DNA of 64,000 bases, taken from assembly GCF_013122565.1 (NCBI RefSeq), contig NZ_CP053258.1; one strand, written 5' to 3'. A model generated the notes under the pieces. The model ran no database searches. It saw nothing but the letters and a program-made list of their open reading frames with translations, and was not told the DNA's origin. Numbering within the stretch: position 1 is the stretch's first letter; each line of letters starts with the position of its first letter. The stretch is from Escherichia coli (GTDB lineage Bacteria > Pseudomonadota > Gammaproteobacteria > Enterobacterales > Enterobacteriaceae). A program made the translations under genes and the position numbers. This document shows, one piece after another, positions 11,385 to 55,395 of this stretch.

Positions 11385-11472
11385 GGTGAGGTGTCCGAGT
11401 GGCTGAAGGAGCACGCCTGGAAAGTGTGTATACGGCAACGTATCGGGGGTTCGAATCCCCCCCTCACCGCCA
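11385..11472 (+). tRNA. serW: tRNA-Ser (anticodon GGA), 88 nt
   Basis: GGTGAGGTGTCCGAGTGGCTGAAGGAGCACGCCTGGAAAGTGTGTATACGGCAACGTATCGGGGGTTCGAATCCCCCCCTCACCGCCA; long variable arm, T-loop GGTTCGAATCC, 3' CCA encoded. Confidence 0.95.
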
Positions 11473-11630: not shown

Positions 11631-11696
11631 AATCCCCCCCTCACCGCCATATTTAAAGAAGAACTCGTACGAAAGTACGGGCTTTTTTTTCGCATT
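11631..11696 (+). repeat. Degenerate direct duplicate of serW 3' end plus terminator (copy of 11453-11518)
   Basis: aatccccccctcaccgccatatttaaagaagaactcgtacgaaagtacgggctttttttt differs from the tRNA 3' end/terminator at only a few positions. Confidence 0.85.
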
Positions 11697-11841
11697 TTAT
11701 CTGCCTGTACGGCAGTGAATATGGTGGGCGGGTGGAGTATGTTACCAGTGAATTTCTAAGCTGCCAGTACGGCAGTGAACGTTCGCTGCAACCGCTAGCC
11801 AAGACGGTAGGTTTTTCTAAGCTGCCTGTACGGCAGTGAAC
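11693..11841 (-). CRISPR. Orphan type I-F CRISPR mini-array: 3 repeats (28 bp), 2 spacers (32-33 bp), no adjacent cas genes
   Basis: Minus-strand repeats GTTCACTGCCGTACAGGCAGCTTAGAAA at 11814-11841 (exact), 11753-11780 (1 mismatch), 11693-11720 (degenerate); spacers 11721-11752 and 11781-11813. Confidence 0.9.
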
Positions 11842-19467: not shown

Positions 19468-21122
19468 TCCGCGCGACCGCGCGCCAGCCACAGCACGCGT
19501 GAGAACATTTTTTTCAGCAGCGTCGGTACGGAGTCCACACCACGACGTCCGGCCTCCATTGCCACTTCAATGGCAAGATCGGGTTTGGAAGAGCGATGGA
19601 TCGCTTTCGAGATAATTTTGCGCAGATTCATCGGTACATTTTCCGGGATTTGCGCCACGCGGTGGAACACATCGGAAAATCCCTGGCGATACATAAAATG
19701 TTCCATATCCAGCGCCGGTAACGCCGTTAAATGTTCTCGTTCGGCTTCCCGATCATTATTCAACAGGCTGCGTACCGTAGCGGCATATTTCTTCCCTGCT
19801 TCATCGCCATCGACCAGTACATGCCATTCAATCCCCATTCGCCGGGCAAATTTAACCAGTGGCTTTAGCCCGGACTGGGCAAACTCAATGACCTTGATCC
19901 CTTCGGCATCAAAATGATGTCCGCACTGACGCGCCAGTTCATTTATAACCCAGGTTTCCGTTTCCCCTTCCACCAGCAACCAGCAGCGAGCAAACAGCGA
20001 TGACGGACGATTAAAACGAATGTGAAAAGAGATGCGGCGGCTGTCTTCGGTGCTCAAGCCACTTGGCCCCAGACGCCAGGCGGCAACACGAGAAGATTCA
20101 CGCACCAGGCGGCAAACATGTTCCACTGGAGTTAACGAAAGCAGCTCGCCAGAGTTGGTGGTAGCAATACGTTGTAAAGGCAAAAGATTCAACAGATGCC
20201 AGGCAACTGAAAGCATAATGGGGTGTAAACGCGTTTCTGGATCTTCGATCAGCAACAATGGACGGGCGTCTTTATCCAGTCGCAATGTGCCTTTTGCCTG
20301 CAATAAAGTAGCAAACAGGCCGAGCAAAATAACCCGATACGAGCGCCCTCCAGGTCGGTCAATCATCCGGTTGATGATGTCCAGATAGCGCCAGCTTCGT
20401 TGCTCATTGCTGGCCCGCCGCCGCATTAAACGATATCGCGCCTGTCCAGCCCCCTGCTCAGAGAAATAATGCTCAAGCAACTGCACCATTGCGGAAAGTC
20501 CCTGACGAATCTGTCCATCAGAGAGATTTTGCGGATGTGAGGACAACTCACGGGCGAGGAAATCGAGCTGGCGCGCGGTGACTTCCACATTGGGGACATT
20601 TGGCACCGTGCCGTTACGAATACGGCGCATAAAACGGGCATCACGCAAGCGCAGCACCGGCATTAAACGCACCAGATGGCGTGCCTGATCGTTAATATCC
20701 TCAACATCAATCGGATGTCCGTCTTTATCGAGAAAACTGCGCAGTGTCATCACGCTGCCGTCTTCCGCACTCTCCCCTTCCAGACGATAAAAAATACGGT
20801 GATAGCCATCGGTGCATGGCGTCCAGCACGCTTCCAGCGGTCGATAGCGGCGAACCCGATGTCGGCCTGGCAGCGATTCGCGGAAGGTCAAAATAATATG
20901 CAGATGATGTTCCCGACCGTTGATATCTCCCGGCGGGAACCAGAAATCGTCGCGCTCAAAATGGTAGAGATCTGATTCTGGCGATAGCAGCAGGGTTAAG
21001 GCGTCCAGCAAGCTGGATTTACCCCACGCGTTCTCCCCAATCAGGACGTTGTTTTGTTCCAGCATCAACGACAAACGGTTGATACCGCGAAAACCCACAA
21101 TTTCAACGCGCTCAAGAATCAT
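19464..21122 (-). CDS. ybjD: OLD-family ATP-dependent endonuclease YbjD (552 aa)
   Basis: MILERVEIVGFRGINRLSLMLEQNNVLIGENAWGKSSLLDALTLLL (ABC-ATPase Walker A) with C-terminal Toprim-like region; 4-nt convergent overlap with ybjX. Confidence 0.88.
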   Translation of the reverse strand: MILERVEIVGFRGINRLSLMLEQNNVLIGENAWGKSSLLDALTLLLSPESDLYHFERDDFWFPPGDINGREHHLHIILTFRESLPGRHRVRRYRPLEACWTPCTDGYHRIFYRLEGESAEDGSVMTLRSFLDKDGHPIDVEDINDQARHLVRLMPVLRLRDARFMRRIRNGTVPNVPNVEVTARQLDFLARELSSHPQNLSDGQIRQGLSAMVQLLEHYFSEQGAGQARYRLMRRRASNEQRSWRYLDIINRMIDRPGGRSYRVILLGLFATLLQAKGTLRLDKDARPLLLIEDPETRLHPIMLSVAWHLLNLLPLQRIATTNSGELLSLTPVEHVCRLVRESSRVAAWRLGPSGLSTEDSRRISFHIRFNRPSSLFARCWLLVEGETETWVINELARQCGHHFDAEGIKVIEFAQSGLKPLVKFARRMGIEWHVLVDGDEAGKKYAATVRSLLNNDREAEREHLTALPALDMEHFMYRQGFSDVFHRVAQIPENVPMNLRKIISKAIHRSSKPDLAIEVAMEAGRRGVDSVPTLLKKMFSRVLWLARGRAD

Positions 21123-21547
21123 ATCCCCTCCAGAAATATGTGACTTATCCTTTACGCTGGCAGTATAACGGGAAAGGCCTTGCTAATACGTGATGACATC
21201 ACATTTAAGCATGGCAAATGTCTGAAAAATGAGCGAATAATCGCGTTATACTCCCTCTTGCTGATAAGTCTGCAAAAACAACAAAATCAAATAATTAGCA
21301 TGATAAATTATTTTTTATTACGCCTAAAGGATTAAATCTTTTGCTTGCACTACACTGTCAATCAGACAAATGACTATATGGGGCAACCCGCTGTTGCCCT
21401 AAATCAAATTTACTGGATTTATTTATCTGGTGAATGGCTCACCTTCGTTTTTAAAATAGCCGCGCATTATTTCCGTCGTCACTTATTTACGACGACCCTA
21501 TATAACGACCATATTTTTCACAGGGTCAATTTTTAATTGAGGTGGAT

Positions 21548-22243
21548 ATGTTCAGAAAATTAGCAGCTGAATGTTTTGGTACTTTCTGGCTTGTTTTTGG
21601 TGGCTGTGGTAGTGCTATTCTGGCCGCAGGCTTCCCGGAATTAGGCATCGGTTTTGCCGGCGTGGCGCTGGCATTCGGTTTGACCGTTCTGACGATGGCC
21701 TTTGCTGTTGGTCACATTTCTGGTGGTCATTTTAACCCGGCGGTCACTATTGGTTTATGGGCTGGCGGACGTTTTCCGGCAAAAGAAGTCGTTGGCTACG
21801 TAATTGCCCAAGTTGTCGGCGGTATTGTTGCAGCGGCGCTGCTGTATTTAATTGCCAGTGGTAAAACGGGTTTTGACGCGGCAGCCAGCGGTTTTGCTTC
21901 TAACGGTTATGGCGAGCATTCACCAGGCGGTTATTCCATGCTTTCCGCGCTGGTAGTTGAACTGGTATTGAGTGCAGGTTTCCTGTTGGTGATCCACGGC
22001 GCAACCGACAAATTCGCTCCGGCAGGTTTTGCGCCGATCGCGATTGGTCTGGCCTTAACCCTGATTCACTTAATCAGTATTCCGGTGACTAACACTTCTG
22101 TTAACCCGGCGCGCAGCACCGCGGTTGCCATCTTCCAGGGCGGCTGGGCATTAGAACAACTGTGGTTCTTCTGGGTGGTGCCAATTGTCGGCGGCATTAT
22201 CGGTGGTCTGATTTACCGGACTCTACTGGAAAAGCGTAATTAA
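21548..22243 (+). CDS. aqpZ: Aquaporin Z (231 aa)
   Basis: ORF 21542..22243; [23 protein letters not shown] from ATG at 21548; two NPA motifs (HFNPAVT, VNPARS). Confidence 0.95.
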
Positions 22244-22329
22244 TTAGTATTGGCATTTTATCTGCCCTGGTTATTTTATCTTCGACGTTACAAACCGCAC
22301 GGGTGTTGGTGGCGTCAAAATCGCTGAAG

Positions 22330-22525
22330 CGTTCCCCGAAGGCCGGGGCAGCCCACATGGATGTGGGCTGAGGGCGCGTCTTACAGGGACGTTACCTCGC
22401 GCCCGACCCGGTAGCCGAAGGGGATAAGCTGAAGGTACCGCGCAGCGGCGATTTTGTTCGCCAGAGCCCGGGGGTGCAGGGGGCGGCGGCGACTGGCCGC
22501 CCCCTGCGCGCTCCCTGCGCCAGTG
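22330..22525. other. GC-rich hairpin-dense intergenic element between aqpZ and lysO (function unknown)
   Basis: Perfect palindrome gcccacat-gg-atgtgggc (22351-22368); 12-bp stem hairpin gcagggggcggc-ggcgactg-gccgccccctgc (22476-22507); further gggcgcg...cgcgccc pairings. Confidence 0.5.
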
Positions 22526-22701
22526 GCTTTATATGGCATTGCACATGAAAGGAGCGCAACAATGCTAAACGCTCATATAGAATTAAAAATCCCCCTCTGA
22601 TGCATAACATTTCCTTTTAATTGCAACTTTACTCGTCCTTCCGCTTTCAGTAGTGTGTCATCGCGCATTTCGACTTCTTTCTTTGCAAGGACTGGGTTTT
22701 C

Positions 22702-23601
22702 ATGTTTTCTGGGCTGTTAATCATTTTGGTTCCCCTGATTGTGGGTTACCTCATTCCTCTTCGCCAAAAAGCTGCATTAAGAGTTATTAATCAGCTATTA
22801 AGCTGGATGGTTTACCTCATTCTCTTTTTTATGGGTATCAGTCTGGCGTTTCTCGATAACCTCGCCAGTAACCTGTTGGCGATTCTGCATTATTCTGCCG
22901 TCAGTATTACCGTTATTTTACTGTGTAATATTGCCGCCCTGATGTGGCTGGAGCGCGGTCTGCCGTGGCGCAATCACCATCAGCAAGAAAAACTCCCATC
23001 GCGTATTGCGATGGCACTGGAGTCGCTAAAACTGTGCGGCGTAGTAGTGATTGGTTTTGCCATTGGTCTGAGTGGACTGGCTTTCTTACAACACGCGACC
23101 GAAGCCAGTGAATACACCTTAATTCTGCTACTTTTCCTCGTCGGTATTCAGTTGCGCAATAATGGCATGACCTTAAAGCAGATTGTCCTTAATCGCCGGG
23201 GAATGATTGTCGCCGTGGTGGTGGTTGTCAGTTCATTAATTGGTGGTTTAATTAACGCCTTTATTCTTGATCTCCCCATCAATACCGCGCTGGCAATGGC
23301 CTCCGGTTTCGGCTGGTATTCTCTTTCCGGTATTTTATTGACCGAATCTTTTGGTCCGGTAATCGGGAGCGCGGCGTTTTTTAATGATCTGGCCCGTGAA
23401 CTGATTGCTATTATGTTGATCCCTGGGCTGATTCGCCGCAGCCGCTCTACTGCACTGGGCTTATGCGGTGCCACATCAATGGATTTCACCCTGCCCGTTC
23501 TTCAACGTACTGGCGGACTGGATATGGTCCCGGCGGCAATTGTTCACGGTTTTATTCTTAGCCTGTTAGTGCCGATCCTCATCGCCTTTTTCTCTGCATA
23601 A
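22702..23601 (+). CDS. lysO: Lysine exporter LysO/YbjE (299 aa)
   Basis: MFSGLLIILVPLIVGYLIPLRQKAALRVINQLLSWMVYLILFFMGISLAF; multi-pass membrane protein. Confidence 0.9.
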   Translation: MFSGLLIILVPLIVGYLIPLRQKAALRVINQLLSWMVYLILFFMGISLAFLDNLASNLLAILHYSAVSITVILLCNIAALMWLERGLPWRNHHQQEKLPSRIAMALESLKLCGVVVIGFAIGLSGLAFLQHATEASEYTLILLLFLVGIQLRNNGMTLKQIVLNRRGMIVAVVVVVSSLIGGLINAFILDLPINTALAMASGFGWYSLSGILLTESFGPVIGSAAFFNDLARELIAIMLIPGLIRRSRSTALGLCGATSMDFTLPVLQRTGGLDMVPAAIVHGFILSLLVPILIAFFSA

Positions 23602-23744
23602 TACCTCTCTGGCGGTAGATCCCTGCCGCCAAAATTGCGCTAAATCAATCTCCCTTAAAGTTGCATGAAAAATCCCTTTTATCCCCGCGTTAAGCGTCTT
23701 AACCTTAAACATGTATATTAAATATAACTTTAAAAGGTGTGATC

Positions 23745-55316: not shown

Positions 55317-55395
55317 GCCACTGCTTTTCTTTGATGTCCCCATTTTGTGGAGCCCATCAACCCCGCCATTTCGGTTCAAGGTTGGTGGGTTTTTT
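55317..55395 (+). ncRNA. rybB: RybB small RNA (sigmaE-dependent, Hfq-binding), 79 nt
   Basis: gccactgcttttctttgatgtccccattttgtggagcccatcaaccccgccatttcggttcaaggttggtgggtttttt matches the RybB sequence as I recall it, including terminator hairpin and U-tract. Confidence 0.9.

Follow-up and report, generated by a model that had tools for sequence, protein, structure and literature searches.

The TRIP1 repeat was named by Rudd (1999), and the same sequences are known under a second name. Pham et al. (2023, 2024) described two 222-bp copies in Escherichia coli K-12, which they named Replication Risk Sequences (RRS), RRS-lysO and RRS-dusC, and stated that RRS corresponds to TRIP1 (PMC10287960, PMC11194060); the RRS name is also used in Kusi-Appauh 2026. 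Li et al. 2024 (PMC10888264) placed TRIP1a 70 bp downstream of aqpZ and 158 bp upstream of ybjE/lysO, with TRIP1c adjoining dusC (yohI), and reported both orientations at both TRIP1 loci as well as rearrangements between copies. In K-12 the RRS copies flank the Ter macrodomain, ~650 kb either side of dif; peaks of RecA/SSB-bound lagging-strand ssDNA depend on RRS, Pol I, II and IV are halted by the G-quadruplex (G4) motif GGGGGTGCAGGGGGCGGCGG, at least one RRS copy is conditionally essential, and genome-wide supercoiling is altered when the copies are deleted or inverted (Pham et al., PMC10287960, PMC11194060). The G4 strand is the lagging-strand template in K-12 (PMC11194060), and an engineered inverted RRS gave no RecA or SSB peak in vivo (Pham et al.). 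In a purified replication system with K-12 sequences, gaps formed at almost every replisome passage in vitro, and the inverted RRS gave fewer of them (PMC13308219). The RRS authors have proposed that these elements act as topological relief valves flanking Ter, and RRS belong to a small number of bacterial sequences for which programmed single-strand gaps in replication have been reported. A second relevant system is TwoAYGGAY (RF01731; Weinberg 2010), an orphan motif that occurs in Clostridia, Psychromonas and gut metagenomes and for which CsrA binding has been proposed (PMC4333381).

The window analysed here is the whole 64,000-nucleotide stretch of E. coli DNA, in which ybjD (-), aqpZ (+, 21542-22243), lysO (+, 22702-23601) and hcp (+) follow one another as in the E. 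coli 20-min region. The spacer between aqpZ and lysO holds a block with 64-72% GC in 100-bp windows, and within it a repeat core of 222 bp (22307-22528) made of nested palindromes, with 69% GC compared with a window-wide 51%. The distance from the aqpZ stop codon (22243) to the core is 64 bp, and that from the core to the lysO ATG (22702) is 174 bp. Its limits are nested, as the core lies in a stretch of ~275 bp conserved family-wide (about 22288-22562), which lies in turn in a strain-variable cassette (~22244-22600); the whole cassette, from the aqpZ stop codon to ATGCATAACATTTCC, differs from the K-12 arrangement. The original prediction had described an unusually GC-rich block with strong palindromes, which is confirmed, all three of the palindromes that it named being present; the interval it assigned to the block, 22330-22525, falls inside the real unit and is narrower than the 222-bp core. 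The features of the element are the following.

22244-22306, + strand: AT-rich 5' flank of the strain-variable cassette, from spacer alignment with K-12-type spacers; it replaces the K-12 aqpZ terminator region.
22250-22277, + strand: sigma-70-like match TTGGCA-16-TATTTT (9/12) from a promoter scan, not conserved in other copies.
22307-22528, + strand: TRIP1a / RRS-lysO core, 222 bp, the + strand being the G-rich 'RRS-G4' strand.
22317-22326 and 22443-22455, + strand: P1, the long closing stem, with 5' arm AAAATCGCTG and 3' arm CAGCGGCGATTTT.
22351-22368, + strand: hairpin 1, GCCCACAT-GG-ATGTGGGC, loop AUGGAU, from the palindrome check.
22372-22404, + strand: hairpin 2, GGGCGCG...CGCGCCC, arms 22372-22378 and 22398-22404, loop region ACAGGGAC.
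22470-22489, + strand: published G-quadruplex-forming motif GGGGGTGCAGGGGGCGGCGG, exact match.
22476-22507, + strand: hairpin 3, GCAGGGGGCGGC-GGCGACTG-GCCGCCCCCTGC, a 12-bp GC stem overlapping the G4 motif.
22508-22557, + strand: terminal stem, GCGCTCCCT (22508-22516) with AAGGAGCGC (22549-22557), enclosing an AT-rich loop.
22562-22600, + strand: 12-codon open reading frame (ORF) MLNAHIELKIPL with its stop codon, after a pseudo-Shine-Dalgarno sequence; not conserved between copies.

Over the core, the window sequence is identical to K-12 RRS-lysO at 208/221 positions (94.1%) and to K-12 RRS-dusC at 206/219 positions (94.1%), the two K-12 copies being 99.1% identical to each other; it is nearer to the inverted yohP-dusC allele (96.8%) than to K-12 RRS-lysO. 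The published G4 motif occurs exactly on the + strand at 22470-22489 and is absent from the - strand, and the spacer position between aqpZ and lysO (ybjE), read from the ORFs, the K-12 annotation and PMC10888264, is that of TRIP1a. The 94.1% core identity together with the exact G4 motif identifies the element as TRIP1a / RRS-lysO. Very probably, then, it is the lysO-proximal TRIP1a / RRS-lysO copy, acting as DNA rather than regulating the neighbouring genes. The element is thus already described and named, and the repeat family is not new. When the spacer was searched by megablast in 5426 complete E. coli genomes, 5425 of them gave matches, with a median of about 3-4 places per genome (minimum 1, maximum 8-9); the suggestion that the block might belong to a repeat family is borne out by this genome-wide count of multiple near-identical copies, although the family, which had been called unnamed, bears the names TRIP1 and RRS (PMC10888264, PMC11194060, PMC10287960). 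RefSeq annotates none of the repeat copies, nor does its K-12 record list any feature where the two full K-12 copies lie, so that sequence scans keep rediscovering the element. The 2024 RRS paper and the TRIP1 paper, searched as text, contain none of the terms Rfam, AYGGAY and CsrA, and yegH and asmA are likewise absent from the TRIP1 paper. Three results described below may therefore go beyond these two papers, namely the conservation of the entire fold through compensatory changes, the relationship to TwoAYGGAY and the extra divergent loci (asmA-yegH, proX).

Copies were found at yohP-dusC, asmA-yegH and proX in addition to the aqpZ-lysO spacer. The asmA-yegH copy is a divergent TRIP1-like paralogue outside the five types into which Li et al. 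2024 divide TRIP1, with inverted REP sequences on both flanks, and occurs in both orientations (L032 2600-2762 (+), L033 2512-2674, and also L012, L020, L026 and L030); in K-12 this copy (L036 5403-5564) is a decayed 25.8-bit remnant that overlaps the 3' end of yegH. Some strains carry a paralogue between proX and an MFS gene (ygaY) (L035 2515-2676, 129.9 bits with the covariance model R1), in which hairpin 1 has a different stem, CGCGC/GCGCG, and the loop CAGGGAUG; the K-12 proX-ygaY spacer, of just 191 bp, gave no match. In model R1, MAFFT had placed hairpin 1 one column off, so the stem is under-represented in the model; all copies were still found. In some window-type E. coli strains (L007 and L008, 1501-1820), ~125 bp of the core were lost between short CCGGGG direct repeats, which removed both GGA hairpins; half of hairpin 3 is lost as well, and the ATG after the pseudo-Shine-Dalgarno sequence reads ACG. 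A wider survey, in which a 20-nt probe from hairpin 1 was searched against one genome per species, gave matches in E. coli, E. albertii, E. whittamii, other Escherichia, Pseudocitrobacter, Kluyvera and another Enterobacteriaceae genome, as well as in a 'Proteobacteria' metagenome-assembled genome (MAG) with E. coli-like copies and in two MAGs labelled Lachnospiraceae (three loci). Pseudocitrobacter, Kluyvera and MGYG-HGUT-00110 carry two diverged paralogues head to head with ~55 bp between them (L011 1962-2123 (-) and 2176-2337 (+), with the same layout in L018, L023, L029 and L031); the neighbour of the L011 pair appears to be mdlB, from a C-terminal translation read by eye only.

Folded as a single strand, 22288-22600 reaches -150.9 kcal/mol (z = -4.2), the shuffles averaging -126.7, and 0/100 dinucleotide shuffles were as stable; the reverse strand gives z = -3.9. 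The fold was further assessed in an alignment of 31 distinct family members, including the divergent asmA-yegH paralogues and the second head-to-head paralogue of Pseudocitrobacter and Kluyvera. The RNAalifold consensus over these 31 sequences comprises nine helices with 50 pairs, across which 97.8% of the alignment cells are paired. Changes on both sides were found in 24/50 pairs, compared with at most 6 such pairs and ~40% pairing in slid-register controls, and the covariation score was 0.329 against 0.117 in shuffles, none of 500 shuffles scoring as high. P1 (helix 1) is 98.6% paired across the 31 sequences; compensatory changes occur in 4/8 pairs of hairpin 1 across paralogues, and in 5/8 of the hairpin 3 pairs modelled in the family alignment. 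The terminal stem (helix 9) has 4 pairs with double changes, GCGCUCC/GGAGCGC becoming CGUUCAC/GUGAACG in paralogues. These patterns show that selection maintains intrastrand pairing in all helices, and the folded molecule could equally be RNA or single-stranded DNA.

The 3' arm of the terminal stem resembles a Shine-Dalgarno sequence, with AAAGGAG-N8-ATG at the 3' end of the element. A ribosome-binding site was considered and rejected: the apparent Shine-Dalgarno becomes AAAGTGAAC in paralogues with the pairing to its partner kept, and since it changes together with that partner and stays paired it is read as a stem arm. A small protein or type I toxin was likewise rejected, as the ORFs following AAAGGAG-N8-ATG differ in every copy; read from the sequences and the alignment, those at the position of 22562-22600 give MMNQHITTS-stop, MRD-stop and others, and the 12-codon ORF of the window is probably not a gene.

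For an element of this kind, the published DNA-level mechanism, combining fold-back and G4 gap formation, is the best-supported one. According to it, and as published for K-12 sequences only, unwinding by the replisome lets the G-rich strand fold into a G-quadruplex and very stable hairpins, which block DNA polymerases; where the G-rich strand is the lagging-strand template, the lagging-strand polymerase skips past the fold-back/G4 structure and leaves behind an ssDNA gap that can reach 2 kb and on which SSB and RecA load. The element of the window is reversed relative to aqpZ and lysO compared with K-12. The + strand of the 64 kb has a GC skew of -0.037 and a shortage of polarised motifs (KOPS, 0 vs 5; RGNAGGGS, 3 vs 21; Chi, 5 vs 13), and these strand-skew markers indicate that the - strand is the leading-strand sequence, and hence that the + (G4) strand is the leading-strand template. 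The window copy therefore does not have the functional RRS orientation, in which the G4 strand is the lagging-strand template; this placement is a property of the K-12 copies and does not define membership of TRIP1 / RRS. Given that engineered inversions are silent or weaker in K-12, the proposed gap activity may be largely absent from the window copy, and we infer that the lysO copy in this strain would be a weak or silent gap trigger. Strain PT62 has an aqpZ-lysO spacer 99.8% identical to that of the window, the comparison being of the spacer alone, and its dusC copy is oriented as in K-12 and has the G-rich strand as lagging-strand template; the G4 motif of this copy is slightly altered, and the copy may carry the gap function in PT62. 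The window-type arrangement is also present in O157:H7 EDL933, whose spacer matches the full query at 98% identity.

The inverted arrangement is common. Orientation was counted in genomes with at least 80% of the whole spacer aligned, among the 5426 complete E. coli genomes, with four spacers (window 22244-22701; L005 4859-5352; L006 5067-5438; L001 2443-2829). At aqpZ-lysO the K-12 arrangement was found in 4028 genomes and the inverted, window-type arrangement in 895; at yohP-dusC the respective counts were 3309 and 1999. The inverted share of complete E. coli genomes is thus ~16% at lysO and ~37% at dusC. These tallies relative to the flanking genes are added here, the existence of both orientations having been reported by Li et al. 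2024. Between the two orientation alleles the core is ~6% diverged and the flanks can scarcely be aligned, which indicates old alleles and not active flips, and the naturally inverted strains offer ready-made material on whether orientation matters.

The role of the G4 motif itself has to be considered in the light of the family. The motif is conserved neither in paralogues (it reads GGGTTGCCAGGGTGGTGG at yegH) nor in the PT62 dusC copy; what is conserved where it varies are the hairpins and the two GGA-containing loops, and hairpin 3 is kept by compensatory changes while the G-runs that overlap it vary. A model based on the G4 alone does not account for this pattern, and it also leaves unexplained the 24-nt segment CAGCCCACATGGATGTGGGCTGAG, containing hairpin 1, which is identical in three Lachnospiraceae-binned TwoAYGGAY loci. 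The conservation of helices and loops, the variable G4 motif and the frequent natural inversion all point away from a G4-only mechanism.

Among the alternatives to a DNA-level role, the one that survives best holds that the element serves, exclusively or additionally, as a gene or module for a TwoAYGGAY-type structured RNA, in which two GGA loops are closed by a long stem; these loops might bind a dimeric RNA-binding protein, e.g. CsrA, and the replication effects would be a by-product of the stable fold. The resemblance to TwoAYGGAY covers the 5' two-thirds of the element: window positions 22315-22454 (+) align with the full length of RF01731 (model positions 1-168) at 27.6 bits (E = 0.21), which falls below the gathering score of 43 bits, and of the AYGGAY loops the first, AUGGAU, fits and the second, AGGGAC, does not, P1 being present and covarying. 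Closer matches come from elsewhere in the family. The second paralogues of Pseudocitrobacter and Kluyvera score 49.2 bits, above the gathering score, and loop 2 reads ACAUGGA in Kluyvera genomosp. 3 and MGYG-HGUT-00110, matching the TwoAYGGAY consensus. The three loci binned as Lachnospiraceae, to which the 20-nt hairpin 1 probe led, score 72-79 bits as TwoAYGGAY and are bona fide members, and a covariance model built from enterobacterial copies only finds the same three loci (E = 7e-6 to 8e-4). TwoAYGGAY is multi-copy in Psychromonas too.

An RNA product would also account for the compensatory changes in every helix, although single-stranded DNA folding predicts equal covariation, and for the excess of G:U pairs (71) over A:C pairs (13) on the G-rich strand, a figure inflated by the fact that the structure was predicted on that strand. 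The sense strand is co-directional with aqpZ, which lacks its own terminator in the window arrangement, and the structure could thus be made as an aqpZ 3' UTR; in the Lachnospiraceae-binned loci a hairpin with a T-run ends the unit. The loops ACAUGGAUGU and ACAGGGACGU look like CsrA sites (cf. PMC4333381). Against an RNA gene stands the promoter evidence, since an own promoter was sought and rejected, the single 9/12 sigma-70 match of the window copy having no conserved counterpart upstream of the paralogues at other loci, and the units of the Kluyvera and Pseudocitrobacter head-to-head pairs leave just ~55 bp between them. As regards CsrA, the per-gene tables of K-12 transcriptomics give 'No' in every flag column and 'NS' for ybjE and dusC; a CsrA sponge was rejected since nothing appears to be flagged in these tables for the two genes, though intergenic RNAs lie outside them. 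The direct DNA-level effects obtained with K-12 sequences in the purified replication system (PMC13308219) likewise speak for DNA. An RNA gene is accordingly judged unlikely, while retaining some real chance, and the gap mechanism acting on DNA is preferred.

We put forward, tentatively and as a possibility rather than an expectation, that TRIP1/RRS is the enterobacterial branch of TwoAYGGAY, so that either the TwoAYGGAY 'RNAs' would be DNA gap triggers, or RRS would need a conserved multi-hairpin fold together with two protein-recognised GGA loops, the G-quadruplex alone being insufficient. If this link were true, it would provide a candidate function for an orphan Rfam motif, and with the TwoAYGGAY of gut Clostridia and Psychromonas as DNA-level gap triggers, RRS-like elements would be widespread and extend beyond enterobacteria. 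On the Lachnospiraceae-labelled MAG contigs, TwoAYGGAY sits in a larger conserved unit of ~450 nt; some 175-190 nt further along its strand comes a G-rich tract, and after it the hairpin and T-run (L017 1875-1904; L025 4657-4686, with an inverted near-copy at ~L025 4130; L024 ~1225-1265). The tract is a G3+ G4 motif in 2/3 of these loci, and in L017 no other such motif occurs within 13 kb.

A selfish or neutral mobile repeat, MITE-like or an invertible cassette, without cellular function, would owe its persistence to insertion or flipping at a few intergenic hot spots. The copy number of 1 to 8-9 places per genome, the three loci that carry both orientations, the decayed and internally deleted copies and the chromosomal rearrangements that the repeat causes (PMC10888264) would all fit such an origin, but no terminal inverted repeats, target-site duplications or associated transposase were seen, strong purifying and compensatory selection acts on the helices, and pure neutrality is refuted by the phenotypes already reported for clean deletions in K-12, where at least one copy is conditionally essential. 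A transposon or MITE was rejected for lack of terminal inverted repeats or a transposase, the sole nearby transposase, of an IS621 copy at one locus, being explained by the neighbouring REPs. An invertible switch (inverton) was rejected as well, because the alleles are ~6% diverged with flanks that can barely be aligned, as expected of old alleles, and no recombinase gene is adjacent. A mobile repeat without function is therefore regarded as very improbable.

The remaining alternative, about as improbable, is a cis-acting part of the neighbours' transcripts, either a lysO leader or riboswitch, or an aqpZ terminator or 3' stabiliser. The element does lie between the two genes, and in genomic SELEX the K-12 ybjE-aqpZ spacer is bound by RNA polymerase holoenzyme. 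In K-12, aqpZ is followed by a canonical terminator separate from the element, a hairpin with a T-run; the window arrangement has no such terminator, so that transcription running on past aqpZ would encounter the GC hairpins as its first strong structures. The structured 5' leader or riboregulator of lysO that the original prediction had envisaged is nevertheless not supported, given that the element takes either orientation relative to lysO depending on the strain and points the opposite way in 4028/5426 genomes, K-12 included, that the same element sits between unrelated genes at yohP-dusC, asmA-yegH and proX, and that strains with internal deletions have lost most of it with the lysO-proximal 100 bp intact. 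An Rfam scan, suggested as a check on the leader, found no lysine riboswitch or leader in 21000-24000 even at E <= 10, only sub-threshold TwoAYGGAY and noise, and none anywhere in the whole window at Rfam gathering scores. An aqpZ terminator complex, also suggested, fails as an identity of the element, since a search of 22100-22800 on both strands for intrinsic terminators returned 0 sites and thus no stem followed by a T-run.

Several other features of the window were recorded. The tRNA-Ser(GGA) gene (11385-11472) has its last ~19 nt and terminator hairpin repeated 177 bp downstream (11631-11689) with 97% identity, a repeat that resembles the attachment-site scar of an integrated element. Beside it are two CRISPR-DR4 repeats (RF01317) at 11753-11780 and 11814-11841 (-), a pair that looks like a minimal orphan CRISPR array. 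At 1452-1876 there are 8-11 tandem copies of a 39-bp unit rich in CTG/CGG, which may encode a repetitive protein linker on the - strand. At Rfam gathering scores, the RybB sRNA was found at 55320-55398 (+) with 104 bits and a naRNA4/BIME-type element at 39229-39309 (-) with 72 bits.

Set beside the systems already described, the element has its nearest counterparts in K-12 TRIP1a (RRS-lysO) and TRIP1c (RRS-dusC), with which it shares GC content, hairpin set and G4 motif, and with TRIP1a also the locus; it differs from them in being inverted relative to the flanking genes and to replication, in its flanks and in the absence of the K-12 aqpZ terminator hairpin. TwoAYGGAY resembles it in the long stem around two GGA-loop hairpins, the presence of multiple copies per genome and the reciprocal model matches, whereas TRIP1 has an extra 3' domain, formed by the G4 hairpin and the terminal stem, directly after P1; the RNA of either family is putative. 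The RRS authors name the pilE G-quadruplex of Neisseria gonorrhoeae as the sole other trigger of gap formation; it differs in sequence, has a local role in pilin antigenic variation and is not a conserved multi-hairpin repeat flanking Ter. CsrB/CsrC-type CsrA-sequestering RNAs also carry GGA motifs in hairpin loops, but TRIP1 has just two candidate loop sites, no promoter or terminator, and no CsrA flag on its flanking genes in the per-gene tables. REP/BIME elements are likewise intergenic repeats, palindromic and rich in GC, for which a part in chromosome topology has been proposed, and BIME-2 binds gyrase; REP units are much shorter and unrelated in sequence, the BIMEs number ~300 per genome (RRS paper), and the REP copies that flank the asmA-yegH TRIP1-like copy are distinct from it.
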